A stretch of DNA of 64,000 bases. Origin: Thermoanaerobaculia bacterium (lineage in GTDB: Bacteria > Acidobacteriota > Thermoanaerobaculia > Multivoradales > JAGPDF01). The stretch is taken from the NCBI GenBank assembly GCA_050186295.1, contig JBFWYP010000001.1, positions 70,069 through 134,068 on the forward strand, written 5' to 3'. Both the position numbers and the translations under genes were made by a program. This document shows, piece by piece, positions 35,878 to 59,473 of the stretch. Each line of letters begins with the position of its first letter. The first letter of the stretch is position 1. The notes beneath the pieces are model-generated. The model was not told the origin of the DNA. It saw only the letters and a list, made by a program, of their open reading frames with translations, and did not search any database.

Positions 35878-35956
35878 GCGTCGATTCTACCGGAGCCGGA
35901 CCGCTCCGCCCGGAGGCGCGACACGGCTGCCGACCCACCTCGCGGGGCGGTCGCAC

Positions 35957-40748: not shown

Positions 40749-41996
40749 GTGACGGAGAGCTCCGAACCAGGGTCCCGGACGGCCGAGGTCGCGCTCCTCA
40801 TCCGTCTGGGCCGCGACCTGCACGAGGCGGGGCTCGCCGCGCCGCAGCTCGAGACGGCGCTCGCCCGCGTCGCTTCGCGGCTCGGAATCGTCGCGCAGTT
40901 CTTCTCGACCCCGACGTCGCTCTTCATCGCCTTCGGCGACGGCGCGGGCCAGCGGACCCATCTCGAGCGGGTCTCGCCCGGGGCCATCGATCTCGGACGG
41001 CTGGCCGAGCTCGAGGCGCTCCTCGATCGACTCGCCGGCGGCGAGCTCACCCCGACAGCCGCGGCGACCGAGTTGGACGAGCTCGCTCGCCGGTCGCGGC
41101 GCTATCCGCGCTGGCTCACCGGCGTCTGCTGGGCGTTCGCCTCCGCCACCGCCGCAGTCTTCCTCGGCGGCGCGGCGCGCGAAGTCGTCGTCGCCGGTGC
41201 GATCGGCCTCCTTACCGGAGTCATCGCGTGGCTCGCCGACCGCCGACCCTCCGCCAAGCGCCTGTTCGAACCGTTCGCCGCGGCACTCGCGGCCTTCGGC
41301 GTCGCCACGATCGCCCACGCCTTCCCGCCGGTGTCGGCCTACATCGCCACCGTCGCCGGGCTCATCGTCCTGCTCCCCGGATACACCCTGACGACGGCGC
41401 TCTCGGAGCTCGCGACCCAGCACCTCTCCTCGGGCACCTCCCGTTTCGCCGGAGCGCTCGTCTCCTTCCTCATGCTCGGACTCGGCGTTGCGGTGGGCGG
41501 CAGGATCGCCGAAGCGCTCTGGGGTGGAGTCCCGGGTGTCGTCCCGATCGGCCCGGCGACCTGGCTGCAGGTCGTCGCGCTGCTCCTGGCACCGGTCTCC
41601 CTCGCCGTGATCCTCAAGGCTCCGGCTACGGAGATGCCCTGGATCGCGATCGTCGGGGCGATCGGCTACTTCGGAGGCCGGCTCGGCGTCGAGGCGTTCG
41701 AACCGGCGGTCGGAATGTTCGGCGGGGCGCTGGCCGTCGGGCTCGCTTCGGCGGGCTACTCGCGTCTCCGTCGCCGGCCGTCCTCCGTCACGCTCGTTCC
41801 CGGCATCCTGATGCTCGTGCCGGGCTCGATCGGCTATCGCAGCCTCACGGCCCTCCTCGCGGAAGAGGTGGTGCCGGGGATCGAGACCGCGTTCAAGATG
41901 CTCTTGGTGGCCGCCTCTCTCGTCGCCGGACTGCTCGTCGCGTCGGCGATCACGGTGGAACGGCGCGACCGCAGCGCCCCGCCGCAGTCGACCTGA
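40749..41996 (+). CDS. Threonine/serine exporter family protein (ThrE; fused DUF1212 + DUF3815)
   Basis: 415 aa with an N-terminal cytoplasmic ThrE-like region and a C-terminal 10-TM region; typical ThrE architecture. Confidence 0.8.
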   Translation: MTESSEPGSRTAEVALLIRLGRDLHEAGLAAPQLETALARVASRLGIVAQFFSTPTSLFIAFGDGAGQRTHLERVSPGAIDLGRLAELEALLDRLAGGELTPTAAATELDELARRSRRYPRWLTGVCWAFASATAAVFLGGAAREVVVAGAIGLLTGVIAWLADRRPSAKRLFEPFAAALAAFGVATIAHAFPPVSAYIATVAGLIVLLPGYTLTTALSELATQHLSSGTSRFAGALVSFLMLGLGVAVGGRIAEALWGGVPGVVPIGPATWLQVVALLLAPVSLAVILKAPATEMPWIAIVGAIGYFGGRLGVEAFEPAVGMFGGALAVGLASAGYSRLRRRPSSVTLVPGILMLVPGSIGYRSLTALLAEEVVPGIETAFKMLLVAASLVAGLLVASAITVERRDRSAPPQST

Positions 41997-42775: not shown

Positions 42776-44134
42776 ATGCCCCGACGTCGCTCGGTTCGCA
42801 GGAACGGCAGGATGCGCCTGCTGGCACCGGTCGTCGCTGGCATCGCCGGCATCGCTGCCATCGCCGGCATGACGGCATGCCGGCCGGGAGCGGGCGATGT
42901 TGCGGCCGATGCCGCCGTGCCGCTCCAGGCCGTTCACGCCCGGAGCCTCCGCGACGTAACGTTCGAACGGACGCCCGAGCGGATCGAGCGCGGGCGCTAC
43001 CTCGCGACTGCGGCAATCGGATGCGTGGTCTGCCACTCCGAGCGCGACCGGAGCCAGCCCGGCGAGCCGCCGCTCGCCGGTCGCGAGTTCGCCGGCCGGA
43101 TCCTTTCCGAGACGCCGGACTCCCGGACGGTGGCGCCGAACCTCACTCCGGACGTCGCGACCGGCGCCGGCTCGTGGAGCGACGACATGCTGGCGCGCGC
43201 CATCCGCGAGGGCGTCGGCCACGACGGACGCGGCCTCGGCGGTCCGATGTGGTGGTGGGCGTTCCGCGACCTCTCCGACGAAGACCTGGCCTCGATCGTC
43301 GTCTACCTGCGTTCGATCCCGCCGGTCCGCCACCAGCTGCCGCCCCGCCGACTTTCCGCGCAGCAGGAGCAGGCCCGCGCCGAAGCGGCGCGACCGCTCT
43401 CCGAGCCGGTACCGGAAGAGGACCTCTCCGACCCCGTCGCGCGCGGCCGCTACCTCCTGGCCATCGCCGACTGCATGGGCTGTCACTCGTCGTGGGAGGC
43501 GCCGAAGATGGCCGGCGCCTTCGCCGGCGGCAATGCGGTGGAGCGCGACGGAACGATCGCCTGGAGCGCGAACATCACGCCCGACCCGCTCGCGCTCGGC
43601 GCCTGGACGCCGGAGATGTTCCGCGCGCGGATCCGGACCGGCCGCGGCGGAACGCTCCACCCGACCATGCCGTGGGTCGCTTACCGGAATCTGAGCGACG
43701 ACGACCTCGACGCCATCTTCGCGGCCCTTCGCGAGGTCGAGCCGGTGACTCACCTCGTCAACAACGTCGAGCCGCCGACGCCCTGCCCGGTCTGCGGCCA
43801 GACGCATCCGGCGGGCGAGCTCAACCGCGTCCCGGTCTTCGAGCGCGTCGACCTCGATCCGGCGACGATCCCGGCGCTCGCCGGGACCTACCGCAACGAG
43901 AAGTACGACCTGACCGTGACGATCCGGATCGTCGAGGAAAAGCTCGTCGCGAGCGAAGGCGGCGCGCCGATCGAGCTCGTCCCGTGCGCCGACGGCTGGT
44001 TCCGCGGTCACGGTCTGGTGGGGCCGTACCGGTTCGAACGCGATGCCGCCGGACGGGTGACCGCCCTCTTCAGCCGCGATCTCGGCCTGACCCGCTACGA
44101 ACCGGTGGCCGAACCTCCCGGCGGAGGGGGTTGA
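42776..44134 (+). CDS. Diheme c-type cytochrome (two CXXCH motifs) with N-terminal signal/anchor
   Basis: I trimmed the track ORF from 42356 to the ATG at 42776, preceded by GGAGAGAAAGAG. Motifs CVVCH and CMGCH, plus an extra CPVC near the C-terminus. Confidence 0.75.
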   Translation: MPRRRSVRRNGRMRLLAPVVAGIAGIAAIAGMTACRPGAGDVAADAAVPLQAVHARSLRDVTFERTPERIERGRYLATAAIGCVVCHSERDRSQPGEPPLAGREFAGRILSETPDSRTVAPNLTPDVATGAGSWSDDMLARAIREGVGHDGRGLGGPMWWWAFRDLSDEDLASIVVYLRSIPPVRHQLPPRRLSAQQEQARAEAARPLSEPVPEEDLSDPVARGRYLLAIADCMGCHSSWEAPKMAGAFAGGNAVERDGTIAWSANITPDPLALGAWTPEMFRARIRTGRGGTLHPTMPWVAYRNLSDDDLDAIFAALREVEPVTHLVNNVEPPTPCPVCGQTHPAGELNRVPVFERVDLDPATIPALAGTYRNEKYDLTVTIRIVEEKLVASEGGAPIELVPCADGWFRGHGLVGPYRFERDAAGRVTALFSRDLGLTRYEPVAEPPGGGG

Positions 44135-44137
44135 CGG

Positions 44138-44643
44138 CTACTCGATTTCGAGCAGCGGATCGCCGCCTTCGACGGCTTCGCCGCTCGTGACGTGGATCTT
44201 CTTCACGGTGCCGGCGCGGTCGGCCTGGATCTCGTTCTGCATCTTCATCGCCTCCAGCACGACGAGCGACTGCCCGGCCTCGACGGCCTCGCCCTCCGCG
44301 ACGCGGATGTCGACCACGCGCCCGGGCATGTAGGCGGTGACGGTCATCTTGCCGCGCTGCCCCGGACCGCCACGCGCCTCTTCCGCCAGGTGGGTCAGCG
44401 GGTCGACGAGCTCGACGTCGAACGAGCGCCCGCGCCAGCCCACGGCATAGCTGCCGTCGCCGTGGCGGAAGACCGCCGTCTCGTGGCTCTCTCCCTCGAC
44501 GAGGAGCGAGATCACGAACGGACCGAGCGAACGGGTGTCGACGTCGAGCTCGCGCTCCGCGATGCGCACCCGGTAGTGGCCGCTGTGGAGGCGCGTCACT
44601 TCCAGGCGCTCGCTGCGGCCGGCGAATCTGGCGACCAGCTGCA
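44138..44643 (-). CDS. Biotin carboxyl carrier (biotinyl/lipoyl) domain protein; possibly the C-terminal part of a frameshifted BC-BT-BCCP alpha subunit
   Basis: The C-terminal 70 aa contain EAMKMQNEI (biotinyl-lysine AMKM). A protein-like 100 aa precedes it. I placed the start at the GTG at 44643, 3 nt after the biotin carboxylase stop. Confidence 0.6.
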
Positions 44644-44646
44644 CGG

Positions 44647-46169
<1,523 letters not shown>

Positions 46170-46173
<4 letters not shown>

Positions 46174-48611
46174 GCAGGCTCCTCGTTCCAGGGCGCGGGG
46201 ATCGTACCATCCGCGCTCCCCGCGCCCGGCCCGCGACCGCCCGCGACGGAACGGGCGACCGCCAGGAGGAGCAGCAGTCCCACCACGACGACACCCATCG
46301 CCAGGTGCAGGGGTCGCCTGCTGATCCAGAACCGGACGCGGTGCGCCCCTGCCGGGACGCGGACGCCGAGCCGCGCGAGCTGCACGATCTCGGTCCGGGC
46401 CGGCGCTCCGTCGATCTCGGCCCGCCAGATCGGCAGATAGGCGCGGCGCAGGAAGAGGACGCTGTCCGAAGCGGCCAGAGCTTCGATCTCGACCTCCTCG
46501 GCAGCCTCGCGGACGATGCGGGCGGTCCCTCCCCCCCCGGAGCCGGTCGCGGTTTCCCCTCCGGCCTCCTCTCCTGCGCCCCCCGCCAGGATCGCCGTCT
46601 GGTGGGGATCGAAGTCGTTCGCGAAGATCGCCTCCATGGCGGCATTCATCTGCGGCGCCCGCACGATCCGCCCGGCGATCTCCACCTCGGCCGCGCGATC
46701 GACGGGCTCGTACACGTGGAGGTCGTTGCCCCACCAGCCCGGATAGCGCGCCAGCTCCCGCACGCGCGGCAACGCTTCCGGGTCGAGCTCGCGGTCGAGC
46801 AGGAGACGATCGACCCCGAGCGCCTCGAGGACGTCGATGCGCCGCGCGTCCGGGAAGCCGCGGAGACCGACGGTCACCGCCTGCGAGAGAAAGCTGTCGA
46901 GACCCTCCGGAGAGATCGCAAGCTCCGTCCGGCGACCATGAAGCACCGCCGTGAACGGGTAGAGCTCCTCCGCCGAGCGGCGCATCAGCCAGCGCAGCCT
47001 GCGGTCCGGGTAGTCGCCGGCAAGCATCGTGCTCGGCCGGAAGAAATCCTGGCTGGCTCCCTGCATCAGGACCGCGTCCTCCGGCACGACCGCGAGTACC
47101 TTCGGCGCCGCGAGGTAGGGGGCGATGTCGTCCATCGGCAGCGCCGGCCTCAGGAGCCAGAGCTGGAAGGCGGTCGCGCAGAAGAGCGCCAGGACTCCGG
47201 AGATCCCGGACCGGTGGCGGGACAGCGCGACGCAGAGGAGAAGCAGTCCGAGGACTCCGAGCGTCAGAAAGGCGACCCCCTGCAGGCGGATCGAGAGCTC
47301 GGCCAGGAGATTCGGCGGGACCTCGGTCGCGAGGAGCGAGGTGACGATCCGACCGAATCCTCGCGGCGCGAGCACCGCCGCGACGAGCGTCGCGAGATAG
47401 CCCGCCGCAATCGTCGCGAGCGCCAGTCCGAGCGGCCTCCTCCGGCCGCGCTCGAACGCCTCCGTGAAGCCGAGACCGGCGAGGAGGCTGGCTCCGAGCG
47501 CCGCAGCCAGCCAGAATTTCTGGGGAAAGCGGAGCGCCTCGCCCAGGGAGGTCCGGACCAGGAGGCGCAGGAGCGGATTGAACTGCCCCAGAGCGAAGAG
47601 GAATCCGAGAGCGATCGCACCCGCCGACCAGAGCTTCGCGCGCCGGCCGTCCTTCGCCAGCAGACCGAGCCCGACGAGAGCCAGCGCCAGAGCTCCCGGC
47701 GCCAGGGTGAAGAAGAGGGGGGGATAGCTGTCGAAGAGCCCGGGTGCGAGGTTCTCCGCGAGATCGGGGCGCCCGAAGAAGAAGGGAAAGAAGAGATCGG
47801 CGAGGTGCTGGAGCCGGAAGCTGCCGAGAAACGGCGGCGCCTCGCCGTTCCACTCGTTGGCCCGGAACGAGAAACCCAGGATGCGGAACGTCTCGACGAG
47901 CTGCGGCGCGGCGAGAAGCGTGCCGGCAGTCAGCGCGAGCAGGAGCCTGGCGTCGAGCAGAGCCCGCCACCTCGACCGGCTGCGGTCGCCCCCGCGCACG
48001 ACGCGCGCAGCCAGGGCGAGCAGCAGCGCGAGCAGGCCAAGCAGCGGTTCTCCGGCGAGAATCAGCAGCGTCCAGAGAAGTCCCGCCGCGACGAGCCCGC
48101 GACGACGGAGTTGCGGCATGTCCGATCCGCTCTCGACGAGCGCCGCTACGAGTGCCGGCGCCAGCGCCGCGCCGGCGACGACGTTGTAGAGATTGAGCGT
48201 GCTGACGAAGTAGCCGGAGGTCGCGTAGCACGCCGCCGTGGCCCAGGCCGACGGGCGCCCGAGCCCCCACGCGCGCCCCATCCAGTAGGCCGCCGCGAGC
48301 GCCACGAAGGCGTGCAGCCAGAAGTGGGCGTTGAAGCTCCAGAACCGTTCGCCGACCAGAGCAAGGAGGTTCGTCGGGTAGAACGGCAGCGCGTTGAGGT
48401 TGCCGGCGAGCGCCTGACCGCCGGCACGGAGCGGATCCACGAGAGGAATCGTTCCCGCGCGCCACGCGTCGACGAGCGAGATCCGCAGAAGGAAGTGGGT
48501 GTGCAGTACGTCGCGGAGGATGAGCGTCTTCCCTCCCGCGATGAGCGACCAGAAAGTCGCCGCGAGGAGCGCCGCCGTCGGCAGCACGTAGAGCGCGACG
48601 AAACGCTTCAT
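46170..48611 (-). CDS. Large polytopic membrane protein, GT-C/YfhO-like putative glycosyltransferase (paralog B)
   Basis: I trimmed the track ORF (to 51644) to the ATG at 48611, which overlaps the upstream paralog's stop as ATGA. 813 aa with a roughly 480 aa multi-TM N-terminus, a soluble C-terminal domain and a terminal TM helix. Confidence 0.8.
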
Positions 48612-50944
48612 GGTCGCAGGTATCCGAGCACGAGGGCGGCGAGGAGCGCGAGCAGTGCGATCCCGCCCGCCAGCTTCTCCGCGAGTCGCGATGTTCCGAT
48701 CACCACTTCCTGGCGTCCGGCCGGAACCTCGACTCCGAGGAGGGCGAGATTCGCCGGCTGCGTCGGCAGGCGAGTGCCGTCGGCGAGCCGCGCCTCGATC
48801 TCCGGAAAGAAGGCGCGCTGGACGACGGCGAGACCTCCCTCCCCTTCGACCGAGAAGCGCAGGCGATCGAAACGCTCGTCGAGGATCCGGATCGTGGCTC
48901 CCGGCGTGTGGCGCACCGGCCGGCTGGCGACCGCCGTGCCGGTCTCCTCCCGCGCGCTCTCCGTGCCGTGGTCGGCCAGGAGGGCGGCGATCGGCGAGTC
49001 GGCGACCACGATCCGCTCCGGCCAGATCACCCGGCCCGCCGAGTCTGAGACGCGGTAGAGCTCGCTGTCCACACCGTAGCGGCGATCTCTGGCGACCGGC
49101 GACCCCGGGGGCGGGTTGCCGTCGTCGTCGCGGCGCACGAACCAGTCGACCCCCTGCCGGCGGAACCAGCGCAGGCGATCCGGCCAGGGGGCCCGCGCCT
49201 GGTACTCCATCAGCAGGGAGCTCAACGGTGAATAGATTCCGTCGAAATCGGGAGCCTGCGGGTAGCGGAGGCCGTGCAGAGCCCCGGTCGCGACGTCGAG
49301 ATCGAGTCGCGCATCCCGCCAGGCGGCGGTTTCCGATTCGAAGGCGCGGCCGCCGCGATTCGACGACGGCGTCGACGGCGGCACGTCCCACAGCAGGACG
49401 ACGTCGGGGTCGTCGCGGAGCATCACGATCCAGGGCGCGGGTGGCGCGAACTCGTCGCGCCGCGCAGTGGTCAGGAGCGGCAGGAGTTGCGCCAGGGCGA
49501 GAAGCTGCGCCGCCAGCACGAGACCCGGGCGGTTCCGCCGCACTCCGATCGCCGCCACAGTGAGCAGCAGCGCCGCGAAGAGCGCCCCGAGGAACCACTG
49601 CGTCTGCTGGGTCGCGGCGACGGCGTGGCTCCGCGCGCCGAGCTCGTGCACGAACCGGTCGCGGATCGGGCCCCGCCCGAACCAGAGTCCGAGCGCTGCG
49701 AGCAGCGCCAGGAGCGCTCCGGCTCCGAGGCTCCGCCGCGACTGCGCGGTGGACGCTTCGTCGCGTTCGCGGAACCAGCGATCGAAGCCCCACCCGGCGA
49801 GCAGGGCGAGTGCCAGGGTCACCCAGAGCAGGAACTTCTGCGAGAAGCGGAAAAGCCCGCCAGTGAGCCGTAGCAGAACCTCTGCCGCCGGTCCGCCCAT
49901 CCAACCGAAGACGAGTCCGGCGACGACGAGCGCCGCCCAGCGCCACCTTCGGTAGGCCGCCAGCGCCGCTGCCAGCCCCACGACTCCACAGTAGAACGAG
50001 TAGATGTACGGTGTCAGCGGAGTCACGCTCGACCAGTAGCCGAAGCGGTCCAGGTTCGACGGCCACCCCCAGGGGAGCGGCAGCAGGAGCTCGAGCCAGC
50101 GGCCCGGCGGGAGCGAGTGCGCCGACACCTGGGCGACCGTGAGCCCGTGCGCGCCACGATAGGTGAAGTCGAGGATCCGCGCCGCGGCGACGATCTGCGG
50201 CGCCGCGATCAGCAGCCCGATCCCGCCGATCACCAGACAGTCGACGACACCGCGACGGAGGCCCCGACGCTCCCACGCCACCAGCAGCATCGGCACCGTG
50301 GCGAGCGCCGCGGTGACCGGCTCTCCGGCGAGGAGCATCATCCCGCAGGCGGCTCCTCCCCAGAGACATCCGCGTCGTCCTCCGCGTGCCACACCCCAGA
50401 GGACGAACGGCAGCCAGGCGACGACGGCGATCAGGTTGTAGAAGGTGAGGAGGGTCAGGACGTAGCCCGACGCGGCGAAGGTCAGCGCCGCGAACGTCGC
50501 CGCCGCGGCACTCTGTCCGAAGGTCCTCGCCAGGAGCCGCATGCCGAGGAACGCCAGGAGCCAGTGCAGGACGTAGTGCGCATTGAAGGCGACCCAGAAC
50601 GGAAGCGCCAGATAGAGCAGATTCCCGGGATAGAACGGCAACGCGTTGGGGTTGCCGGCGAACGGCTGACCGAGCGCCCGCGTGGTGTCGAAGGACGGAA
50701 TCTCGCCGCTCGCGAGTGCCTCGGCCCCGTAGTGCTTGAACGACAGATGGGTGGTGAACACGTCGCGCGCCAGGAGCGTGCGCCCGCCCGTGAGCAGCGG
50801 CCAGGAGAAGAAGAGCCAGGTGATCGCCAGCACGACGAGGAGCCAGCGGTCGACCCGCAGAGCCGGCGCCGGAGCGACCGGCCCGGAACCCGCCCCCGGG
50901 CCGTTCCCGTCGATCGCATCCGGCGCGCTTAGAATACCGGCCAT
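48608..50944 (-). CDS. Large polytopic membrane protein, GT-C/YfhO-like putative glycosyltransferase (paralog A)
   Basis: 778 aa. It shares N-terminal blocks with paralog B (G-x-TLL/I-ARDV..TH, NALPFYP-NLL, FNAH..LH) and the same overall architecture. Confidence 0.8.
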   Translation of the reverse strand: MAGILSAPDAIDGNGPGAGSGPVAPAPALRVDRWLLVVLAITWLFFSWPLLTGGRTLLARDVFTTHLSFKHYGAEALASGEIPSFDTTRALGQPFAGNPNALPFYPGNLLYLALPFWVAFNAHYVLHWLLAFLGMRLLARTFGQSAAAATFAALTFAASGYVLTLLTFYNLIAVVAWLPFVLWGVARGGRRGCLWGGAACGMMLLAGEPVTAALATVPMLLVAWERRGLRRGVVDCLVIGGIGLLIAAPQIVAAARILDFTYRGAHGLTVAQVSAHSLPPGRWLELLLPLPWGWPSNLDRFGYWSSVTPLTPYIYSFYCGVVGLAAALAAYRRWRWAALVVAGLVFGWMGGPAAEVLLRLTGGLFRFSQKFLLWVTLALALLAGWGFDRWFRERDEASTAQSRRSLGAGALLALLAALGLWFGRGPIRDRFVHELGARSHAVAATQQTQWFLGALFAALLLTVAAIGVRRNRPGLVLAAQLLALAQLLPLLTTARRDEFAPPAPWIVMLRDDPDVVLLWDVPPSTPSSNRGGRAFESETAAWRDARLDLDVATGALHGLRYPQAPDFDGIYSPLSSLLMEYQARAPWPDRLRWFRRQGVDWFVRRDDDGNPPPGSPVARDRRYGVDSELYRVSDSAGRVIWPERIVVADSPIAALLADHGTESAREETGTAVASRPVRHTPGATIRILDERFDRLRFSVEGEGGLAVVQRAFFPEIEARLADGTRLPTQPANLALLGVEVPAGRQEVVIGTSRLAEKLAGGIALLALLAALVLGYLRP

Positions 50945-51815
50945 GTCTCTCGCTCTCCTTCGCTCGCTGCGCCCTGCGCAGTGGGTGAAGAACCTCTTCG
51001 TCCTCGTCCCGCTGGTCTTCGCTCACCGGGCCGACGACCCCACGGTGGTGCGTCGCGCGGTCGTCGCCCTGCTCTGTTTCTGCGCCGCGTCGAGCGCCAT
51101 CTACCTCGTCAACGACCTCAGGGACCGCGACAGCGACCGCCATCATCCGCTGAAACGGCTGCGCCCGATCGCCTCCGGGCTGCTCTCCCCCGCCGTCGCG
51201 GCGGCCGCCGCCGCCGTGCTGCTGGCCGGCGCCTTCCTGGCCGCCCGGGGAGCGGGAAACCGCTTCCTGTTCGCGCTCGCTGCCTACGTCGTCCTCAACG
51301 TACTCTACTCGCTCGCCCTCAAGCGGATGGTGATCCTCGACGTCATGTCGATCGCCGCCGGCTTCGTCCTCCGGGTGCTCGCCGGCGCCGTCGCGATCGA
51401 CGTCGACGTCTCGAACAGGCACCAGCTCTGCACGACGTTCGTCGCGCTCTTCCTCGGCGTCTCCAAGCGCCGCCACGAGATCGCCGCGCTGCCGCCCGGG
51501 ACCCTCGGGACCCGCGCCGTGCTCGAGCAGTACAGCCTCACCTTCCTCGATCAGCTGATCAACGTCGTCACCGCGTCCACGGTTGTCGCCTACTCTCTCT
51601 ACACCGTCGATCCGGCGACCGCGGCGAGGCTGGGCACGCCTCACCTGGTCTGGACCGTCCCGCTGGTGCTGTTCGGGATCTTCCGCTTCCTCTTCCTGCT
51701 CTATCGCTCCGACGACGCCCGCAGCCCGACCGACGCGATCCTTCGGGATCCGCCCTTCCTCGCCAACCTCGCGCTCTGGGGAGTCGTGGTGCTCTCCTTG
51801 ATCTATGGCACCTGA
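50943..51815 (+). CDS. UbiA-family prenyltransferase resembling decaprenyl-phosphate phosphoribosyltransferase (DPPR synthase)
   Basis: I trimmed the track ORF from 50736 to the ATG at 50943. The LRPAQWVKNLFVLVPLVFA N-terminus and the first Asp-rich motif NDLRDRDSDRHHPLKRLRPIASG resemble the DPPR-synthase subfamily; 8-9 TM helices. Confidence 0.85.
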   Translation: MSLALLRSLRPAQWVKNLFVLVPLVFAHRADDPTVVRRAVVALLCFCAASSAIYLVNDLRDRDSDRHHPLKRLRPIASGLLSPAVAAAAAAVLLAGAFLAARGAGNRFLFALAAYVVLNVLYSLALKRMVILDVMSIAAGFVLRVLAGAVAIDVDVSNRHQLCTTFVALFLGVSKRRHEIAALPPGTLGTRAVLEQYSLTFLDQLINVVTASTVVAYSLYTVDPATAARLGTPHLVWTVPLVLFGIFRFLFLLYRSDDARSPTDAILRDPPFLANLALWGVVVLSLIYGT

Positions 51816-54303
51816 CCGCCGCCTGCGATACGCCTTTGCGGGTCTCTTCTTCGCCTCCGGCGCCGCCGGGCTCGTCGATCAGGTGGTCTGGCTGCGCTAT
51901 CTCGCGCTCGTCTTCGGCAACACGACCCTCGCCACGGCGACGATCCTCGCCGTCTTCCTGGGCGGTCTCGGCCTGGGCTCCTGGCTCTTCTCGCGTCACG
52001 CCGAGGCGCTCGCGGAGAGCGGCAGGGCGGTCGCCGTCTACGCGCTCCTCGAGGCGGGCGTCGGTCTCTTCGCGATCTTCTCGCCGCGACTCTTCGCCGC
52101 GATCGATTCGGTCTACATCGTGACCTACCGCTCGGTCGGCGACGAGCCGCTCCTCTTCGCGCTGCTCCGCGCGGCCCTCGCGGCGCTCGTTCTCCTCCCG
52201 CCGACGCTGCTCATGGGGGGCACGCTCCCCGTGCTGCTCGGCGCCCTCTCGCGCCGTCCGGAGGGCGAAACCGCGGGTCACCGGGAAGGGCGTGACACCG
52301 CGCTCCTCTACGGCGCCAACACCCTCGGCGCGATGGCCGGCGTCGGAGCCGCCGGCTTCTTCACCATCCGGCTGTTCGGCCTCGAAGCGAGCCTCCTCCT
52401 TTCGGCGGCGCTCAATCTCGCCGTCGCCCTGGTCGCGATCCTGCTGCAGCCGCCGAAGCGCCGCGCCCCGCCGTCAACGTCGTCGCCGGCAGCCGATCCG
52501 GCGCGATACCTGCTCCTCGCCGCGCTCTTCATGGGCGCGACCAGCATCGCCTGCGAGGTGCTCTGGACCCGGGTCCTCGTCTTCTACCTCGGGTCGAGCG
52601 TCTACGCCTTCAGCCTGATGCTGCTGCTCTTCCTCGCCGGCATCGCCATCGGCAGTCTCGCCGCCGCGCGCGTCGTCGACCGGGTGGAGCGCCCGGTGGT
52701 CCTGCTCTTCCGCCTCGAGCTGCTCCTCGCGCTGCTCACTCCGGTCTCGATCTGGCTCTTCGCGACCCTCGACGACCGGCTCATCGCGCTCTCCGAGGCG
52801 CTCGAGCCGCGCCGCTTCGGTGTCGCCGTGGTGGCGGAGCTCCTGGCGATCGCTCCCATCCTCCTGCCGCCGACCCTGCTGATGGGTTTCCGCTTCCCCG
52901 TCGCAGCCCGCGCCTACTCTCGACGGATCGGGACACTCGGCGCCGACGTCGGAAGGCTGTACGGAGCCAACACGGCAGGGTCGATCGTCGGCGCGCTGGG
53001 AGCCGGCTTCCTCCTGATCCCGCTCCTCGGCAGCCAGAACTCCCTCCTCGCAGTCGGCACGGCCAACGCCCTCGTTGCCGTCTGGCTGGCCCGCCGCGCG
53101 ACGCGCGACGCCCCCCTCCTCCCGGGGGACCGTCGTCTCGCGATCGCGGCCTGGCTCGTCGTGCCGGCACTCGTCCTGACGGGATCGCTTCTGCCGCCGG
53201 ATCGCGTGATCCTCGCTTCGGGCCTCTTCGCGAGCGACCGTCCGGGCGATCTTCTCTACTTCCAAGAGGACGCCAATGCGGCGGTCGCCGTGCGCAACAA
53301 ACACGACCCCGACGGCGACTACGTCTCGCTCGAGCTCAACGGCGTCAACGTCGCCGGGACCAGTCCGGACCTCTACGCCGTGCAGAAGCTGCAGGGGCAT
53401 CTGCCGCTCCTCCTTGGGAACCACGACGACGCCCGTGTCGTCCATATCGGATTCGGTAGCGGCGGCACGGCGCACGCGGTATCGCGCCACCCGGTGAGCG
53501 AGATCCGGATCGTCGAGATCAGTCCGGCGGTCCTGGCGGCTTCTGACCGCTACTTCGCCGGAATCAATCACGGCGTTCTCGCCGACCCGCGCGTGAAGGT
53601 CGAGATCAACGACGGACGCAACTTCCTGCTCGCGACACCGCTGGTCTTCGACGCGGTGCTGTCCGACTCGATCCATCCGCGCTACGCCGGCAACGGTTCT
53701 CTCTACAGCAAGGAGTACTTCGAGCTGGTGGCGAAACGTCTCGCTCCGGGCGGCGTCGTCTCGATGTGGCTGCCGATGTACTCTCTCACCACGTCGAACT
53801 ACGCGATGATCGTCCGCGCCTTCAGGGACGTCTTCCCCCACACCGTGATCTGGTACGAGCCGTCGGCGCTCAACTCGTTCACCGTCGTCACCGGGCGACG
53901 CTCCGGCGGACCCTGGGACGAGGCCGAGCTGGCGCGGAACTTCCGCGATCCGGCAGTCCTCGAAGCGCTCGCCGACATCGGCATGAGAACGCCGGCCGAC
54001 GTTCTCGCCTGCTACATCGTCTCCGGTCTCGAGCTCGACGCCTTCCTCGGTGGCGCGCCGCCGCACGTCGACGACCTGCCGGCCGTCGAGTACGAAAGCG
54101 GCACCCTGCTCGGCGCCAACTGGACCTGGCTCGAGACCTTCTCGCGGCTCCTCGCCAGCCGCCCGGTGGAAGTTCCCGACACGGTGCTCGAGGCGGTACC
54201 CGAAGACGAGCGCGAAGCGCTTCGGTCGGCGTGGACCGCGCGAGGACAGCACCTCGAGGGTCAACGGCAGTTCCTCGCCGCGAACGTCACCCGCTGGCAC
54301 TGA
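51805..54303 (+). CDS. Fused MFS-like membrane domain / spermidine-synthase-like (polyamine aminopropyltransferase fold) protein
   Basis: 832 aa with a roughly 450 aa, 12-TM N-terminus. The C-terminal class-I MTase/spermidine synthase fold carries VVHIGFGSGGTAH, EIRIVEISPAV, VEINDGRNF and FDAVLSDSIHP. Confidence 0.85.
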   Translation: MAPDRRLRYAFAGLFFASGAAGLVDQVVWLRYLALVFGNTTLATATILAVFLGGLGLGSWLFSRHAEALAESGRAVAVYALLEAGVGLFAIFSPRLFAAIDSVYIVTYRSVGDEPLLFALLRAALAALVLLPPTLLMGGTLPVLLGALSRRPEGETAGHREGRDTALLYGANTLGAMAGVGAAGFFTIRLFGLEASLLLSAALNLAVALVAILLQPPKRRAPPSTSSPAADPARYLLLAALFMGATSIACEVLWTRVLVFYLGSSVYAFSLMLLLFLAGIAIGSLAAARVVDRVERPVVLLFRLELLLALLTPVSIWLFATLDDRLIALSEALEPRRFGVAVVAELLAIAPILLPPTLLMGFRFPVAARAYSRRIGTLGADVGRLYGANTAGSIVGALGAGFLLIPLLGSQNSLLAVGTANALVAVWLARRATRDAPLLPGDRRLAIAAWLVVPALVLTGSLLPPDRVILASGLFASDRPGDLLYFQEDANAAVAVRNKHDPDGDYVSLELNGVNVAGTSPDLYAVQKLQGHLPLLLGNHDDARVVHIGFGSGGTAHAVSRHPVSEIRIVEISPAVLAASDRYFAGINHGVLADPRVKVEINDGRNFLLATPLVFDAVLSDSIHPRYAGNGSLYSKEYFELVAKRLAPGGVVSMWLPMYSLTTSNYAMIVRAFRDVFPHTVIWYEPSALNSFTVVTGRRSGGPWDEAELARNFRDPAVLEALADIGMRTPADVLACYIVSGLELDAFLGGAPPHVDDLPAVEYESGTLLGANWTWLETFSRLLASRPVEVPDTVLEAVPEDEREALRSAWTARGQHLEGQRQFLAANVTRWH

Positions 54304-54306
54304 GAG

Positions 54307-55296
54307 ATGGCTGAACCTCTCGAGGATGCGGACCCGGGCTCCCTTCCGGGAGGCTGGACGCGGCGACTCCGTCCGCACGAGTGGCTCACCCTCCTCTTCG
54401 CCGGACTCACCGCCGTCCTGTTCGCCTGGCGCGGGGAGCCGTTCACGGTCGGGCCGCTCCTGCGCGGTTACGGAAAGTTCGTCGGTGCGATCTCGCTGCT
54501 CCTCGTGCCGGCCTGGTACGTCGGCGAGCTCCGGCGCCGGCGGCTGGGGGAAGCCAGCCCGTCGTTCGCCGTGCAGCTCGCGGACTACCTGCGCTCGCTC
54601 GCGGTGCTCGTCCTCGCGCTGGTGGCCTACACCAACCTGAAGTGCCGCCTGCTCCTCCTCCACCCCCGGCTCTTCGACCGCGTCCTGGCGCGCCTCGACG
54701 CCATCCTGCACGCCGCGGGGGGCGACCTGGCCGGCTGGATCGCCTCGTTCCACTCGCCGGCGCGGACCGTCCCGTTCCATCACGTCTACTTCCTCGCCTG
54801 GGCGGCGTTCGCGCTGCCGCTCGCCGTCGCGGCCGCGGTCCGCGGAGCGGCGACCGTTCGCCGCGCTCTCACCGCGCTCACGATCCTCTACATCGCCGGC
54901 GTGCTGCTCTACCTCGCGGTCCCGTCACTTGGTCCGGCGCTGGTCGACCGCGCGGCGTTCCGCGCCCTCGACGGCACCGAGATGTTCACGCTGCAGACCG
55001 AGATGCTGGCGGCCCTCCGTTACACGGTCGAACACCCGCACGCTCCGGCGGTCCCGTTCTTCGGCCTCGCCGCCTTCCCGAGCCTCCACGTCGCTACCAG
55101 CTTCCTCGGCATCCTGGTCGCCTGGCGCACCTGGCGCCCGCTGCTCGTCCTGCTCGTCCCCTGGAATCTCGCCATCGCCGCCAGCGCGGTCTACTTCGGC
55201 TGGCACTACATCCTCGACTTCTATCCCGCGATCGGGCTGGCGTGGGGGTGCTGGTGGGTGGCCGGATCGCGGAGATTCGCCACCCCGGGCCCGTAG
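54307..55296 (+). CDS. PAP2-superfamily membrane phosphatase
   Basis: Polytopic membrane protein with PAP2-like motifs PSLH and WHYILD in the C-terminal helices; 3 nt after the upstream stop. Confidence 0.7.
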   Translation: MAEPLEDADPGSLPGGWTRRLRPHEWLTLLFAGLTAVLFAWRGEPFTVGPLLRGYGKFVGAISLLLVPAWYVGELRRRRLGEASPSFAVQLADYLRSLAVLVLALVAYTNLKCRLLLLHPRLFDRVLARLDAILHAAGGDLAGWIASFHSPARTVPFHHVYFLAWAAFALPLAVAAAVRGAATVRRALTALTILYIAGVLLYLAVPSLGPALVDRAAFRALDGTEMFTLQTEMLAALRYTVEHPHAPAVPFFGLAAFPSLHVATSFLGILVAWRTWRPLLVLLVPWNLAIAASAVYFGWHYILDFYPAIGLAWGCWWVAGSRRFATPGP

Positions 55297-55313: not shown

Positions 55314-57101
55314 GTGAAGAGCAGCCCCGGAACCACCGAATCGCAAGACCCTCCACCGGGCCGGCGAGCGACGATCGTCGCAGGAGCCGCGGCGGTCATC
55401 CTGTTCGGCGCTTCGATCCTGTTCCTTCACGTCCTCGCAGTCACCACCGAAAGCATCAACTGGGACGAGTTCGCGCTCTTCGCTCGCGCCGTCGATTCGG
55501 TCCAGGGAGGCAAACTGATCACCGGGGGCCGCCCCGGGCTCGGCGTCGTCTCGCTCATTCCGATCGCAGTCCCTTGCGAGAGCGAGGTCGCCACGGTGCA
55601 GCTGGGCAGATTCCTCTGGATCGGATGGACCCTGCTCGCCGGGCTTGCCCTCTGGTTGCTGGTTCGTCGCTGCCTAACCGGAGCGAAGGAGGCGCCGTGG
55701 GCGGCCGCGCTCGCGGTCGGGCTCTGGTTCCTCGTGCCCGTGGTCGAGAGATGGTCGCTCCATGTGCGCACCGATCAGCCCGCACTCGCTCTGGCTCTCC
55801 TGGGGACGCTCGGACTTCTCGACCGCCGCGGTCGACTCTTCACCGGAATCCTCTCGGGCGCGCTGTTCGGGCTGGGTTATCTCTTCTCCCAGAAGGCCGT
55901 GTACGTCGCCGCTCTGGGCATGCTGCTCTGGATGTTCGATCGATTTCCCGGCCTGCGCGGACTCCTGGCCAGCGAATGGAAGAGGCTCGTCGGCATCGGC
56001 GCCGGCGGCCTGGCGGTCCTGGCGGCATTTCGCATCGCCACCTCCCTCGCATTCGAGATCCCGGACGCGCTCACGATCGACCGCGCGCTGCGATTCCGTG
56101 CCGACTACTCGGACATGTCGGCATCGGCGCTGATCGGCGCAGGAGCGACCCTCGTTCCCCACCTCGTCCTCGTCCTGCTCATGCTCCTCGCGACTCACCG
56201 TCTCTGGGGCAGCGGTTCGCCCGAACAGACGCTGCTCCTGCGCTCCTGGGCCGTTCTCGCCCTCGGAGGAGCCGTTCTGCTCTTCCACACCAGCCGATTC
56301 GTCTATTTCTGGATCACTCTCGGCATCTTCCCCGCGGTCGCTCTGGCGCTCGCGCTGCCGGTGATCCGGCATGCCTTGCCGCCCGGCCTCGTACGCATCA
56401 CGCTGGCGACGACCATCCTCCTTCTCGCGATTCCGGGAATCTCCGCGGCGCGGTCGATGCTCCTCGATTCACAGCGGTTTCAGCGCGAGAGTCTGGAGTT
56501 CGTGGATCGCAACTTCTCCGACTCCGAAGCGGGATTTCAGCCCGAACGGGCGCTGTTCTGTCGCGACTCCGACGATCCCTTCCCCACCTACTTCACCCTG
56601 CGAATCGGCCGCGACTTTCGACCTGCGGCCCGGGGGAAGGCGGAAGAGTTCCTGCGCAAGTTCCGCGAGCGCCCCGTCTACTACATCGTCGATTCGCATC
56701 GGCTGTCGCTGTTTCCACCCGCGATCTGGGATTTCTGGAGAGCCCACTACGTGCCCTACTACTCTGCGGTCGCCATTCCGGGATTCACCGTGGACGGAGC
56801 CGGTCCGTCACCGCAGACCGGAGAGATCATCATTCCGGGCGACTACCGCTGGATCCCGCTCGCCTCGTCCTCGGGCGCCGCGCTACGCCTCGACGGAGTC
56901 GACCTGCCGGCCAGAGAGGCAAGGCACCTCGAGGCGGGAGCGCACAGCGTGGAAACGGGGTCCGGAGTCAGCGGCGTGGTCGCCTGGGCGCTCGCCGAGG
57001 AGCCCCATGATCCCCAACGGTCCTTCTACGGTCTCGCGATGCTGAATGAGTTCACCTACGGCAACGCTCGCGGCGCCACACGACGAAGGAAGGTGGACTG
57101 A
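55314..57101 (+). CDS. GT-C family membrane glycosyltransferase (ArnT/PMT_2-like), putative polyprenyl-phosphate-sugar dependent
   Basis: I trimmed the track ORF from 54381 to the GTG at 55314 (MKSSPG...). The first TM is followed by a loop with NWDEFALFARA (the DE motif of GT-C enzymes), about 11 TM helices, and a C-terminal soluble domain. Confidence 0.65.
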   Translation: MKSSPGTTESQDPPPGRRATIVAGAAAVILFGASILFLHVLAVTTESINWDEFALFARAVDSVQGGKLITGGRPGLGVVSLIPIAVPCESEVATVQLGRFLWIGWTLLAGLALWLLVRRCLTGAKEAPWAAALAVGLWFLVPVVERWSLHVRTDQPALALALLGTLGLLDRRGRLFTGILSGALFGLGYLFSQKAVYVAALGMLLWMFDRFPGLRGLLASEWKRLVGIGAGGLAVLAAFRIATSLAFEIPDALTIDRALRFRADYSDMSASALIGAGATLVPHLVLVLLMLLATHRLWGSGSPEQTLLLRSWAVLALGGAVLLFHTSRFVYFWITLGIFPAVALALALPVIRHALPPGLVRITLATTILLLAIPGISAARSMLLDSQRFQRESLEFVDRNFSDSEAGFQPERALFCRDSDDPFPTYFTLRIGRDFRPAARGKAEEFLRKFRERPVYYIVDSHRLSLFPPAIWDFWRAHYVPYYSAVAIPGFTVDGAGPSPQTGEIIIPGDYRWIPLASSSGAALRLDGVDLPAREARHLEAGAHSVETGSGVSGVVAWALAEEPHDPQRSFYGLAMLNEFTYGNARGATRRRKVD

Positions 57102-57161
57102 CGTGTCCCCGACAACCTCGCAACTCTTCACGGCCGATCGACATACCCGCCCGGGGACATC

Positions 57162-58337
57162 GTGAAGAAGCTGCGCACGAAGTCCGACCTCGCGATCCAC
57201 GGGGCCCCGCCCGCATTCGAGTCTCCGCTCCACGTAGGCCGTCCGAACATCGGGGATCGCAACCGGTTCCTGGAGCTGGCAAGCGAAGTCCTCGATCGGG
57301 CGTGGCTCACGAACAACGGCCCCCTCGTGCAGGAACTGGAAGCACGACTGGCGCGAGTTCTCGAGGTTCGGCACTGCATCGCCATGTGCAACGGAACCGT
57401 CGCGCTCGAAACGGCGATCCGTGCGACCGGCCTCCGTGGCGAGGTCATCGTTCCTTCGTACACGTTCATCGCGACCGCACACGCGCTCCACTGGCACGGC
57501 CTCACCCCGGTCTTCGCGGACATCGACCTCCACACGCACTCGCTCGATCCCGAGTCGGTTCGATCGAAGATCACTGCCCGCACCAGCGCGATCCTCGGAG
57601 TCCACCTCTGGGGCCGACCGGCTGCGCACGCCGAGCTCGAACGGATCGCTTCCGAGCACGGCCTCGCGCTCCTCTACGACGCCGCCCACGCCTTCGGCTC
57701 GACGCTGGATTCTCGCCCGGTCGGTCGCCTCGGACGATGCGAGGTGTTCAGTTTCCACGCAACGAAGTACTTCAGTTGCGGCGAGGGCGGTGCCGTCACC
57801 ACGAACGACGATCAGCTGGCGGAGAAGATCCGACTGATGAGGAACTTCGGCTTCGCGGGATTCGACAACGTCGTTCACCCCGGAACGAACGCCAAGATGC
57901 CCGAGATGTCCGCGGCTCTCGGCCTCTCGAACCTCGACAGCCTGGACCGGATACTCGATTGGAACCGACGAAACTTCGAGCTCTACGCCGAAGCGCTCTC
58001 CGGCCTTCCCGGCATCTCCCTTTTCGAGCCGCCTCCGTCCGAGCGCTCCAACTATCAGTACGTCGTCGTCGAAACGCACGAGGACTGCACGGCTTCGCGG
58101 GACGAGCTCCTCGCCACTCTCCACGCCGAGAACGTGTTGGCGAGGAGGTACTTCTGGCCCGGGTGTCACCGCATGCTTCCCTACCGCGAGAGCGACCCCG
58201 GCGCAGCCGAGCACCTTTCCCGCACGGAGGTCGTCGCCGGACGCGTCATCGTGCTCCCGACCGGACTCGCGATTTCGGAAGAGGAGATCCGGATCGTGGC
58301 GTCCATCCTCGAAATCGCGCTGTCCCGACGCCGGTGA
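57162..58337 (+). CDS. DegT/DnrJ/EryC1/StrS family sugar aminotransferase (PLP-dependent)
   Basis: 391 aa with the conserved SFHATKYFSCGEGG lysine region; GTG start at 57162. Confidence 0.9.
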   Translation: MKKLRTKSDLAIHGAPPAFESPLHVGRPNIGDRNRFLELASEVLDRAWLTNNGPLVQELEARLARVLEVRHCIAMCNGTVALETAIRATGLRGEVIVPSYTFIATAHALHWHGLTPVFADIDLHTHSLDPESVRSKITARTSAILGVHLWGRPAAHAELERIASEHGLALLYDAAHAFGSTLDSRPVGRLGRCEVFSFHATKYFSCGEGGAVTTNDDQLAEKIRLMRNFGFAGFDNVVHPGTNAKMPEMSAALGLSNLDSLDRILDWNRRNFELYAEALSGLPGISLFEPPPSERSNYQYVVVETHEDCTASRDELLATLHAENVLARRYFWPGCHRMLPYRESDPGAAEHLSRTEVVAGRVIVLPTGLAISEEEIRIVASILEIALSRRR

Positions 58338-59473
58338 GCCTTCGCCCACGCGGCCTTCTCATCTTCGGCGGGTCGAACAACCGAGCCGTCGTCGCGCTCT
58401 CTCGAGCCCTCACCGCGCTCTCGCTTCCTTTCCACATCATCGCCAGGAACGGCGCTGACCCCGTGCTCAGGACACGGTTCTCGCGCCACGTCTCGTCGAT
58501 CCGCACCTCCGAGGAGCTCGATCTCGATCGGTTCGCAGGCTGGATCTCCGATGCGACTTCCCGGTCGCCGGGAGTCGACTGGACGATCGCTCCCACTTCC
58601 GAGTTCGTGAACCTCTGGATGCTCCGCGAGCGCGACGGCATCGAATCCCTCGGCGCCCGCGTCCCTCTCGTCGAGGCACCGCTCTACGACTCGTTGACGA
58701 ACAAATGGAGCGCGTCGCAGCTGTTCGGGAGCCGCGGGATCCGAGTTCCCGCACTCAGAACCGGCTTCCTCTCCGAGGCATTGCCGCTCGTCGCCAAGCC
58801 TCACAGGAATCTGGGAGCCGCAGGCCGCATGCTCTATCCGTGGATCATCCGCAGCAGGCATCAACTCGACGTGTTCCTGGAGTCCGAGAACCCAGACGAC
58901 TATTTTCCCCAGGAGCTCGTGCGGGGCGACAGCTTCTACCTCCTGCTCCACTTGGCTCGCAATGGCAGGGTGACGGCATCGAGCCAGCGAAACATCGCCC
59001 AACAGGCGGGGGGTCGATCGATCGTGCTCGCCGAGACCTCGGACTTCCACTGTCAGCCGGTCGCGGACCGGGCAATCACCGTGCTCCGGGATGCGGGCTT
59101 TCGCGGGCTTGCGATGATCGAGTTTCTCGTCGACCGATCGGACGCCTGTTTCATCGAGATCAACCCGCGGGCCTGGGGGCCACTCCAACTCTGCCTGGAT
59201 CACGCCAGCGGTATAGTCGAATCGTTCCTCGGTGACGAATTGTTCGACGACGAGACGAAATTTCTCGAAACGGCCGACCGACGGCCCAAGCGTGCGGCCT
59301 ACTCGTGGATGGGGGGATGGTTCGACGAGTGGCGCGCGCGGAGGCCCGTGCATTGGTGCGGTGGTTTCCGCCCTCCACTCTCGCTTCGTCTGAGATTGCT
59401 GTCCGGTGACGTATACCTGCGTCGAGACACCTGGAGGCTCACCCTCTCGTCGGAGCAGTCTCGTGCCCGATGA
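58334..59473 (+). CDS. ATP-grasp domain protein (putative amide ligase)
   Basis: I trimmed the track ORF from 57302 to the GTG at 58334, which overlaps the degT stop as GTGA. ATP-grasp core with IEINPRAWGP; about 379 aa. Confidence 0.75.
   Translation: MSLRPRGLLIFGGSNNRAVVALSRALTALSLPFHIIARNGADPVLRTRFSRHVSSIRTSEELDLDRFAGWISDATSRSPGVDWTIAPTSEFVNLWMLRERDGIESLGARVPLVEAPLYDSLTNKWSASQLFGSRGIRVPALRTGFLSEALPLVAKPHRNLGAAGRMLYPWIIRSRHQLDVFLESENPDDYFPQELVRGDSFYLLLHLARNGRVTASSQRNIAQQAGGRSIVLAETSDFHCQPVADRAITVLRDAGFRGLAMIEFLVDRSDACFIEINPRAWGPLQLCLDHASGIVESFLGDELFDDETKFLETADRRPKRAAYSWMGGWFDEWRARRPVHWCGGFRPPLSLRLRLLSGDVYLRRDTWRLTLSSEQSRAR

Follow-up and report, generated by a model that had tools for sequence, protein, structure and literature searches.

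What do two large membrane proteins do when their genes sit back to back with a gene for making lipid-linked ribose? We address this question for a locus in the Thermoanaerobaculia bacterium assembly GCA_050186295.1 (contig JBFWYP010000001.1, positions 70,069 to 134,068 of the forward strand), a 64-kb stretch of about 70% GC that we refer to as the window. Two adjacent genes, here called A and B, encode paralogous polytopic proteins with a predicted glycosyltransferase-C (GT-C) fold and an apparent relationship to the YfhO family. Gene A lies head to head with a gene for a predicted polyprenyl-phosphate phosphoribosyltransferase, and because of this arrangement A and B probably decorate or build a ribose-type (pentofuranose) cell-surface polymer. 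More specifically, we propose from sequence, structure models and analogy that both proteins would consume periplasmic polyprenyl-phospho-ribofuranose, or an epimer of it, derived from the divergent synthase, a proposition that we judge evenly balanced.

Two coupled paralogs and their predicted fold

A and B are translationally coupled, full-length paralogs. The B start codon (ATG, 48611-48609) overlaps the A stop codon (TGA, 48610-48608) in the context ccATGAag, and a third-position GC content of 0.85-0.92 tracks both frames and switches exactly at their junction. A 4-nt overlap or a short gap also joins the two genes in related loci from other genomes, for example L001 (12259/12262) and L003 (7341/7344). 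BLASTP aligns the proteins at 28% identity over 765 residues (E=6e-25), colinearly from the first transmembrane helix (TM1) through the C-terminal anchor, a similarity far above chance. A first-pass annotation made from the sequence alone had described ATGA-coupled minus-strand paralogs with shared N-terminal blocks. Open reading frames (ORFs), overlap, third-position GC and BLASTP all agree with that description, and the alignment that it named as the check on paralogy is clear. Every block is present in it: GGRTLLARDVFTTH in A and GGKTLILRDVLHTH in B, NALPFYPGNLL and NALPFYPTNLL, FNAHYVLH and FNAHFWLH. The duplication is ancient, A and B being two anciently diverged members of one branch.

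Both proteins share a three-part layout, visible in hydropathy as well as in structure models. AlphaFold2 modeled A with a predicted local distance difference test (pLDDT) score of 92.9 and a predicted TM-score (pTM) of 0.93, and B with 92.2 and 0.93. Each model has an all-helical membrane domain that runs to about residue 490, then some 260 residues of mixed alpha/beta soluble domain and finally one C-terminal TM helix. In A, the alpha/beta domain spans about 493-750 and terminates in a beta-sandwich, after which comes the long C-terminal helix. The first-pass annotation had drawn the same architecture, a multi-TM region of some 480 residues followed by a soluble domain and a TM anchor. N-termini and C-terminal tails are positively charged in both proteins, a distribution that fits an N-in/C-in topology with a periplasmic soluble domain.

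The models place A and B among the GT-C glycosyltransferases, a superfamily with a polytopic membrane domain of 8-13 TMs. In Foldseek searches against the PDB, all matches with E<1e-3 were GT-C enzymes, at a probability of 0.99-1.00 for A and B alike. AftD was the top match (E 3.6e-8 for A, 1.4e-8 for B), ArnT gave the best global superposition (TM-score 0.53-0.59, normalized on ArnT), and EmbB/EmbC and yeast STT3 also fell within this limit. AglB, DPY19, Pmt4 and ALG enzymes followed at E 1.5e-3 to 8e-2 and a probability of 0.8-1.0. AftD and Emb enzymes gave low TM-scores on the target (0.22-0.28) because they are much larger. The GT-C-type assignment of the first-pass annotation thus survived the fold check set for it. 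A transporter or protease fold was rejected, major facilitator superfamily (MFS) folds matching with a probability below 0.2 and a TM-score of about 0.1. We also rejected reading the AftD match as a sign of an arabinofuranose donor, since AftD, ArnT and STT3 come out on top for GT-Cs in general, Gram-positive YfhO and PMT_2-type enzymes included (PMC8035078).

Within the GT-C enzymes, A and B appear to form a divergent branch related to YfhO. YfhO was the sole recurring family in a Pfam scan of 62 family members, appearing in 14 (E<=0.01, best 3.4e-8), and several A/B homologs carry a precomputed YfhO domain. Against a gathering threshold of 28.5 bits for Pfam YfhO (PF09586), A scored 8.4 bits (E 0.82, residues 36-187 on profile positions 4-161) and B 13.2 bits (E 0.029, residues 714-761 on positions 774-821 of 835); both matches are colinear with the profile and lie at its opposite ends. 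Neither protein reached any curated Pfam or NCBIfam threshold; weaker similarities link A to DUF6044 (E 0.022, sub-threshold) and the B C-terminus to NCBIfam PgfM2 (E 0.081, 11 bits against a cut-off of 1500). The family scan supports the YfhO-type reading of the first-pass annotation, which had not noted that the window proteins themselves score below the PF09586 threshold; we treat A and B as relatives of YfhO rather than members by the Pfam rule. The branch is large and unannotated. A family profile retrieved 57,734 cluster representatives at E<=1e-3 and 9,503 at <=1e-30 among 1.84 billion. There are hundreds of close relatives, every named close homolog is annotated 'hypothetical protein', and the closest public proteins come from metagenome-assembled genomes (MAGs) of Thermoanaerobaculia (Acidobacteriota).

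Conserved residues point to an active site retained in both paralogs. The alignment comprised A, B and 90 homologs from the two families, 92 sequences in all, of which 62 were scanned with Pfam. An Arg-Asp pair (R60-D61 in A, R33-D34 in B) is invariant and directly follows TM1 (helix 28-51 in A); GT-C enzymes canonically carry their catalytic acid, as a conserved acidic residue or a modified DxD motif, in the first extracytoplasmic loop after TM1. At a further 44 positions, conservation is at least 90% and the paralog families share the residue. In A numbering, H66 and G97-N98...Y105-P106 of the first loop belong to the conserved set, as do H123 and H127, where the next helix begins, R256, R263 and R366-x-P368-x-K370. 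Because the conserved set is kept in both, both paralogs look catalytically competent. Another 40 positions are conserved only in A, 33 only in B and 8 are 'switched', a pattern that fits long-standing subfunctionalization. Given these paralog-specific positions alongside a shared putative catalytic set, two acceptor or linkage specificities, as the first-pass annotation had suggested, stay plausible.

Linkage to a predicted synthase of lipid-linked ribose

The gene divergent from A is identified by its sequence matches as a polyprenyl-phosphate phosphoribosyltransferase. Its product matches Pfam UbiA and scores 276.9 bits against the NCBIfam equivalog NF008977 (decaprenyl-phosphate phosphoribosyltransferase; cut-off 234). 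The motif N-D-x-x-D-x-x-x-D, present as YLVNDLRDRDSD, equals N247/D248/D251/D255 of Citrobacter youngae ORF15, which are essential there and in the mycobacterial enzyme too (PMC11127046). The start codons of A and the synthase gene share a CATG palindrome, so that the intergenic region is absent. An AAGGAG Shine-Dalgarno-like motif lies about 10 nt upstream of the A ATG, within the first codons of the divergent gene. These family matches and the shared CATG bear out the divergent pairing with a UbiA/PAP2 operon that had been noted at first pass, and the phosphoribosyltransferase identity, which had been missed there, points to the donor. Gene callers independently gave the same 2-nt head-to-head overlap in L001 (10001-10002), where the A ortholog is only 45% identical. 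L057 likewise has a 2-nt start-codon overlap at 10001-10002. A promoter and terminator scan of 43500-52000 yielded counts no higher than in shuffles.

The synthase linkage is conserved across two classes. A scan of GTDB species representatives found 80 loci, all from Acidobacteriota (Thermoanaerobaculia and Holophagales/Holophagae) except one MAG labeled Polyangiaceae, and we searched 86 loci with the window proteins by tblastn. In 50 of the 76 loci that have at least 1.5 kb of upstream sequence, the synthase and the first GT-C gene stood directly head to head. This linkage covers Thermoanaerobaculia and Holophagae and persists at identities as low as about 32%. In at least 15 cases, orthologs of A and B lie on one contig, and two-copy loci keep the order A then B without exception. 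A single B-like copy occurs in Holophagae and in a few other loci (L002, L004, L081-L084). The synthase is the one neighbor kept with the GT-C genes across both classes; other neighbors vary.

The rest of the divergent operon differs from locus to locus. It consists of the synthase with an MFS fusion and a PAP2 phosphatase, the synthase with PAP2, or the synthase with a glycosyltransferase family 2 (GT2) protein. In about 14 related loci an MFS/spermidine-synthase fusion lies between synthase and PAP2. PAP2 adjoins the synthase in L001, L005-L012, L014, L029, L038, L054, L059 and L077 and is absent from many other loci. A GT2 with two C-terminal TMs accompanies the synthase in about 17 loci; as its best NCBIfam similarities are AglJ, dolichyl-phosphate hexose transferase, PpgS, PgfS and ArnC, we assign it by sequence as a polyprenyl-phosphate glycosyltransferase.

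Three observations concern the wider set of genomes. The MAG labeled Polyangiaceae (Myxococcota; L024, CAXMQZ010000103.1) carries the complete arrangement of synthase, A, B, biotin carboxylase (BC) and biotin carboxyl carrier protein (BCCP), reflecting either mis-binning or horizontal transfer out of Acidobacteriota. In another MAG, homologs P0002 and P0121 (NCBI R2862_06105 and R2862_06100) are a 446-aa fragment of A and a 730-aa fragment of B, the A fragment having out-of-frame ends and being frameshifted relative to the window. In a further MAG, A and B are fused in a 1130-aa ORF (P0029) that terminates in out-of-frame sequence. These fragmented and fused public ORFs are probably products of assembly indels.

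Proposed function and competing explanations

The analysis shows paralogy, a modeled GT-C fold, a conserved putative catalytic set, the sequence identity of the phosphoribosyltransferase and a conserved gene linkage, and from these we infer donor, acceptor, orientation and the division of labor between A and B as follows. On the cytoplasmic face, the phosphoribosyltransferase would make polyprenyl-phospho-5-phosphoribose from phosphoribosyl pyrophosphate (PRPP). By analogy with Rv3807c (PMC11127046), the PAP2_3 phosphatase is proposed to remove the 5-phosphate, after which the product would be flipped. The MFS/spermidine-synthase fusion is a speculative flippase candidate, put forward because it is the sole transporter-like gene of the operon. 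On the periplasmic face, the helical membrane domain of A or B would bind the polyprenyl-phosphate-linked monosaccharide and pass its sugar on to a glycan or glycoconjugate of the envelope. D61 of A and D34 of B would act as catalytic base, while H123/H127, R256/R263 and R366/K370 (A numbering) would hold the donor phosphate and sugar, and the periplasmic domain of about 260 residues would present the acceptor. Possible acceptors are a polysaccharide, lipopolysaccharide (LPS) or protein. A and B, co-translated in a fixed order, would most likely add two different residues or linkages in succession, or form a hetero-complex. The assignment of polyprenyl-phospho-ribofuranose as their substrate draws on the conserved synthase linkage and on components shared with known pathways.

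Experiments have established that a phosphoribosyltransferase, a phosphatase and a GT-C together produce pentofuranose side chains (PMC11127046), and the same combination leads to mycobacterial arabinan. The three-component system of C. youngae O1/O2 pairs PPPRS ORF15 with the MATE flippase ORF14 and the GT-C ORF12, which founded CAZy family GT136 (Kelly et al. 2024, PMC11127046). Like the window, it has a UbiA-family synthase with NDxxDxxxD and GT-C genes beside the synthase, along with a phosphatase step of the kind proposed here for PAP2_3. Its GT-C, like A and B, has an Asp after TM1, catalytic in Citrobacter, and a beta-rich C-terminal periplasmic domain. The Asp/His/Arg spacing of A (61/127/366) resembles the essential D31/H106/R349 of ORF12, an analogy only. 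The systems also differ. Citrobacter has a fused haloacid dehalogenase (HAD) phosphatase, whereas the window encodes a separate PAP2_3 membrane protein in mycobacterial style, and it contains neither a MATE flippase nor an epimerase. GT136 is ArnT-like, whereas A and B are YfhO-like, carry an extra C-terminal TM anchor and come as two paralogs, and would represent another GT-C family with an analogous role. Finally, the A/B locus belongs to the chromosomal core and not to an O-antigen island.

Mycobacteria make and use decaprenyl-phospho-arabinose (DPA) by means of Rv3806c, Rv3807c, DprE1/E2 and the arabinofuranosyltransferases EmbA/B/C and AftA-D, which are GT-Cs of families GT53/85/87/89. 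As in the window, an Rv3806c-type synthase and a PAP2-superfamily phosphatase share one operon, with several large GT-Cs that have periplasmic domains nearby. The EmbA-EmbB pair is a precedent for cooperating paralogous GT-Cs, and AftD is the best PDB fold match of A and B. DprE1/DprE2 are not in the window, so by default we predict ribofuranose and not arabinofuranose. At the sequence level, a profile search of PDB sequences detected no similarity of A and B to Emb, Aft or ArnT proteins, a designed TM protein being the best match (E 0.36).

The YfhO family (YfhO of B. subtilis and S. aureus, Lmo1079 of L. monocytogenes; PF09586) shares with A and B the polytopic domain, the extracytoplasmic domain and the last TM. 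B. subtilis YfhO has 13 TMs and a 389-aa extracellular loop ahead of the last one (PMC5836110). A GT-C fold is predicted for its family too, the best structural homologs coincide (AftD, ArnT, STT3, AglB), and its genes likewise lie beside one for an enzyme that makes a lipid-linked donor. In contrast to YfhO, A and B belong to a diderm acidobacterium without teichoic acids, form a conserved tandem pair below the Pfam threshold, and are linked to a UbiA-type phosphoribosyltransferase with PRPP as donor instead of a CsbB/GtrB-type GT-A enzyme. The partner GT-A and the GtrA-type flippase of the YfhO/CsbB/GtcA system are both lacking in the window. ArnT (GT83, the undecaprenyl-phosphate-4-amino-4-deoxy-L-arabinose:lipid A transferase) likewise faces the periplasm and uses an undecaprenyl-phosphate (Und-P) monosaccharide donor, and some of the related loci adjoin lpxK/kdtA/lpxL genes. 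ArnT is 14-15% identical to A and B and, unlike them, is without the 260-aa domain and terminal TM. The ArnA/C/D genes of its system are absent here, and the nearby DegT aminotransferase is DesI-like and lies in a separate polysaccharide cluster of lower GC.

Several points weigh against a pentofuranose donor for A and B. The synthase operon contains a PMT_2/ArnT-like GT-C candidate of its own, which could be the true partner, and the enzyme proven to transfer pentofuranose in the three-component system (GT136; PMC11127046) is likewise ArnT-like. Characterized YfhO enzymes use Und-P-N-acetylglucosamine (Und-P-GlcNAc) supplied by CsbB (PMC5836110). A and B both fall below the Pfam YfhO threshold, and the AftD match, being generic for GT-Cs, is not donor-specific. 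Of the optional epimerases, the window holds neither DprE1/DprE2, which serve arabinofuranose, nor an ORF13-like SDR (short-chain dehydrogenase/reductase), which serves xylofuranose, and it holds no GtrA/SMR/MATE flippase. In the roughly 17 loci with a GtrB/AglJ-like GT2 beside the synthase, a hexose donor is possible. A literature search on Thermoanaerobaculia glycans returned nothing relevant, and no glycan chemistry is known for the lineage. Lastly, about 22 loci contain a third, 'solo' paralog without the synthase.

These solo paralogs (among them L013, L016, L020, L022, L041, L048, L056, L058, L067, L069, L070, L085 and L086) have a neighborhood of their own. About 15 of the 22 or so are divergently paired with a strongly conserved endonuclease/exonuclease/phosphatase (EEP)-family phosphatase, and 12 also with a classical SDR (70-89% identity between genomes). 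This arrangement may constitute a second donor-processing module. We considered whether the SDR is DprE2-like and rejected this, NCBIfam giving a generic FabG-like assignment.

The donor is where the strongest competing account departs from ours. A and B might use a polyprenyl-phospho-hexose or -N-acetylhexosamine made by a GtrB/CsbB-type GT2 elsewhere in the genome, with the phosphoribosyltransferase serving the PMT_2-like GT-C. Characterized YfhO proteins do pair with CsbB and Und-P-GlcNAc (PMC5836110, PMC8035078), a two-TM GT2 of AglJ/PpgS/PgfS/ArnC type stands beside the synthase in about 17 related loci, and the ArnT-like nature of the proven pentofuranosyl GT-C (PMC11127046) is matched by PMT_2 domains in homologs of the 595-aa protein. 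Yet the window encodes no GtrB/CsbB-type GT2, its sole GT2 being without a TM segment. Moreover, the PMT_2-like gene recurs in 0 of 86 related loci, whereas the linkage of synthase and YfhO-like genes is conserved, and the start-codon overlap physically ties A to the synthase. We therefore regard hexose use as unlikely, while giving it serious weight. At the other extreme, A and B could lack enzymatic activity and serve as transporters, flippases or scaffolds whose GT-C-like membrane domain is degenerate. There has been speculation that YfhO itself flips the donor it uses (PMC5836110), and a dedicated flippase was not found in the locus. The Arg-Asp of the first extracytoplasmic loop and the His/Arg/Lys positions, however, are invariant over the 92 sequences of both families in the manner of an active site, and the poor matches to MFS and other transporter folds agree with this; a non-enzymatic role is barely credible.

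Two further accounts concern how A and B work together and on what. They may form an obligate hetero-complex, in EmbA-EmbB or Pmt1-Pmt2 style, that polymerizes a pentofuranose homopolymer or long side chains and not single residues. The ATGA coupling and the fixed A-then-B order throughout the class suit this idea, as do the full conserved residue set in both paralogs, EmbA/EmbB and AftD among the fold matches, and the setting amid housekeeping genes at host-like GC, unlike a variable serotype island. The read-through fusion P0029 would also suit it, but its out-of-frame end makes it probably an assembly frameshift, and the single-copy loci of Holophagae and elsewhere imply that the family as such does not require a heterodimer. 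We consider an obligate complex improbable. The broader version, a pentofuranose-based core envelope polymer of Thermoanaerobaculia and Holophagae built by an A-B hetero-complex in the manner of mycobacterial arabinan, we consider a long shot; the conserved coupling to BC and BCCP hints that synthesis of such a polymer is tied to lipid or fatty-acid metabolism. Alternatively, A and B could be protein O-glycosyltransferases acting on secreted or envelope proteins, as S. mutans PgfM1/PgfM2 or PMT enzymes do. The weak PgfM2 match of the B C-terminus, PMT-family enzymes among the fold matches and PgfS-like GT2s in related loci all lean this way, and P. aeruginosa arabinosylates pilin through the same donor pathway (cited in PMC11127046). 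That PgfM2 match is far below its cut-off, however, and the neighborhood holds no conserved candidate acceptor gene, which leaves protein O-glycosylation quite improbable. It touches the acceptor only and is compatible with the polyprenyl-phospho-ribofuranose donor that we propose.

Parts of this picture are already known, namely the GT-C fold, the superfamily and the donor pathway. What appears new is a tandem of YfhO-type GT-Cs joined to a UbiA-type phosphoribosyltransferase instead of a GT-A enzyme, in uncultured diderm Acidobacteriota and in an unannotated family. Polyprenyl-phospho-pentofuranose glycosylation was long deemed mycobacterial, and the Gram-negative O-antigen case shown in 2024 involves a different GT-C family (PMC11127046). 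If the linkage is functional, pentofuranose chemistry would reach a phylum of soils and sediments that is abundant and almost uncultured, many 'hypothetical proteins' of a family whose profile extends to about 58,000 cluster representatives would gain a first function, and YfhO-type enzymes would not be confined to the CsbB/Und-P-GlcNAc logic of Firmicutes. The prediction is that envelope glycans of acidobacteria contain ribo-, arabino- or xylofuranose, sugars that would matter for soil aggregation, for phage receptors and for biomarker chemistry. Should A and B build a pentofuranan polymer, YfhO-type enzymes would count as the fourth GT-C lineage to have been drawn independently into pentofuranose chemistry.

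Neighboring genes and the wider window

Table 1. Features of the locus and its surroundings, in window coordinates.
Feature	Coordinates	Strand	Remarks
ThrE	40749-41996		after the housekeeping stretch
Biotin carboxyl carrier-like protein	44138..44644	minus	168 aa; GTG start after GGAGGG; EAMKMQNEI biotinylation motif
Biotin carboxylase, AccC-like	44647..46173	minus	~508 aa; immediately downstream of B; Biotin_carb_N/CPSase_L_D2/Biotin_carb_C
Gene B	46170..48611	minus	813 aa, ATG start; paralog of A with equal architecture (translation, BLASTP)
ATGA overlap, A stop / B start	48608..48611	minus	translational coupling; sequence cgaccATGAagcg
Gene A	48608..50944	minus	778 aa, ATG start; predicted YfhO-like GT-C glycosyltransferase (ORF, translation, third-position GC frame)
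CATG palindrome	50942..50945	both	starts of A (minus) and phosphoribosyltransferase (plus) overlap by 2 nt
Polyprenyl-phosphate 5-phosphoribosyltransferase, predicted; UbiA family, Rv3806c/PPPRS type	50943..51815	plus	proposed donor synthase
Fused MFS-like / spermidine-synthase-like membrane protein	51805..54303	plus	832 aa; NF037959 136 bits vs cut-off 40; Pfam Spermine_synth
PAP2_3 membrane phosphatase	54307..55296	plus	Pfam PF14378 70.9 bits; without NCBIfam match
Third GT-C candidate, polytopic	55314..57101	plus	595 aa; 6/41 homologs carry PF13231 PMT_2
DesI-like DegT aminotransferase	57162-58337		follows the 595-aa protein gene in the divergent operon; low-GC polysaccharide cluster
ATP-grasp gene	58340-59470		low-GC polysaccharide cluster
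Methyltransferase	59394-60323		low-GC polysaccharide cluster
Wzx-like flippase	60326-61831	minus	low-GC polysaccharide cluster; distant from the synthase operon
GT2 without TM segment	61835-63064	minus	only GT2 in the window

One further gene of the divergent operon, after PAP2_3, probably encodes a third GT-C, distantly of PMT_2/ArnT type. The 595-aa protein itself has no Pfam or NCBIfam match; its candidacy comes from the minority of homologs that carry PMT_2. A homolog of the same length, P0241, is 100% identical to it, and tblastn found no counterpart of the gene in the 86 related loci.

On the other side, A and B head a minus-strand operon that continues into BC and ends with BCCP. The carboxylase scores 632.9 bits against NCBIfam NF006367 (cut-off 597). 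No ATG, GTG or TTG lies near its conserved N-terminus KRFRKVLIANRGEIA; the sole candidate start is a CTG (46173-46171) that overlaps the B TGA as CTGA, and reflects either non-canonical initiation or an error in the sequence. Of 65 loci, 40 have BC and BCCP downstream of the GT-C genes (L003, L004, L081, L082, L084 and about 35 others), and these include loci of Holophagae with only about 32% identity; the linkage may be functional or may be housekeeping synteny. A carboxyltransferase gene is not near the pair, and across loci the genes are often translationally coupled.

Beyond the divergent operon, GC drops to 0.64-0.66 over 56001-64000, compared with 0.68-0.72 elsewhere. This stretch covers the polysaccharide cluster and is possibly a variable or acquired O-antigen or exopolysaccharide region. 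To the left of ThrE, the segment 14169-40711 provides a housekeeping context: a dcw cluster (mraW, ftsI with a PASTA domain, murE, murF, mraY, murD, murG, murC, ftsQ and ftsZ), a SurA-like peptidyl-prolyl isomerase (PPIase), mfd (32434-35886), pntB and a gene for a 916-aa BNR/sortilin-repeat protein.

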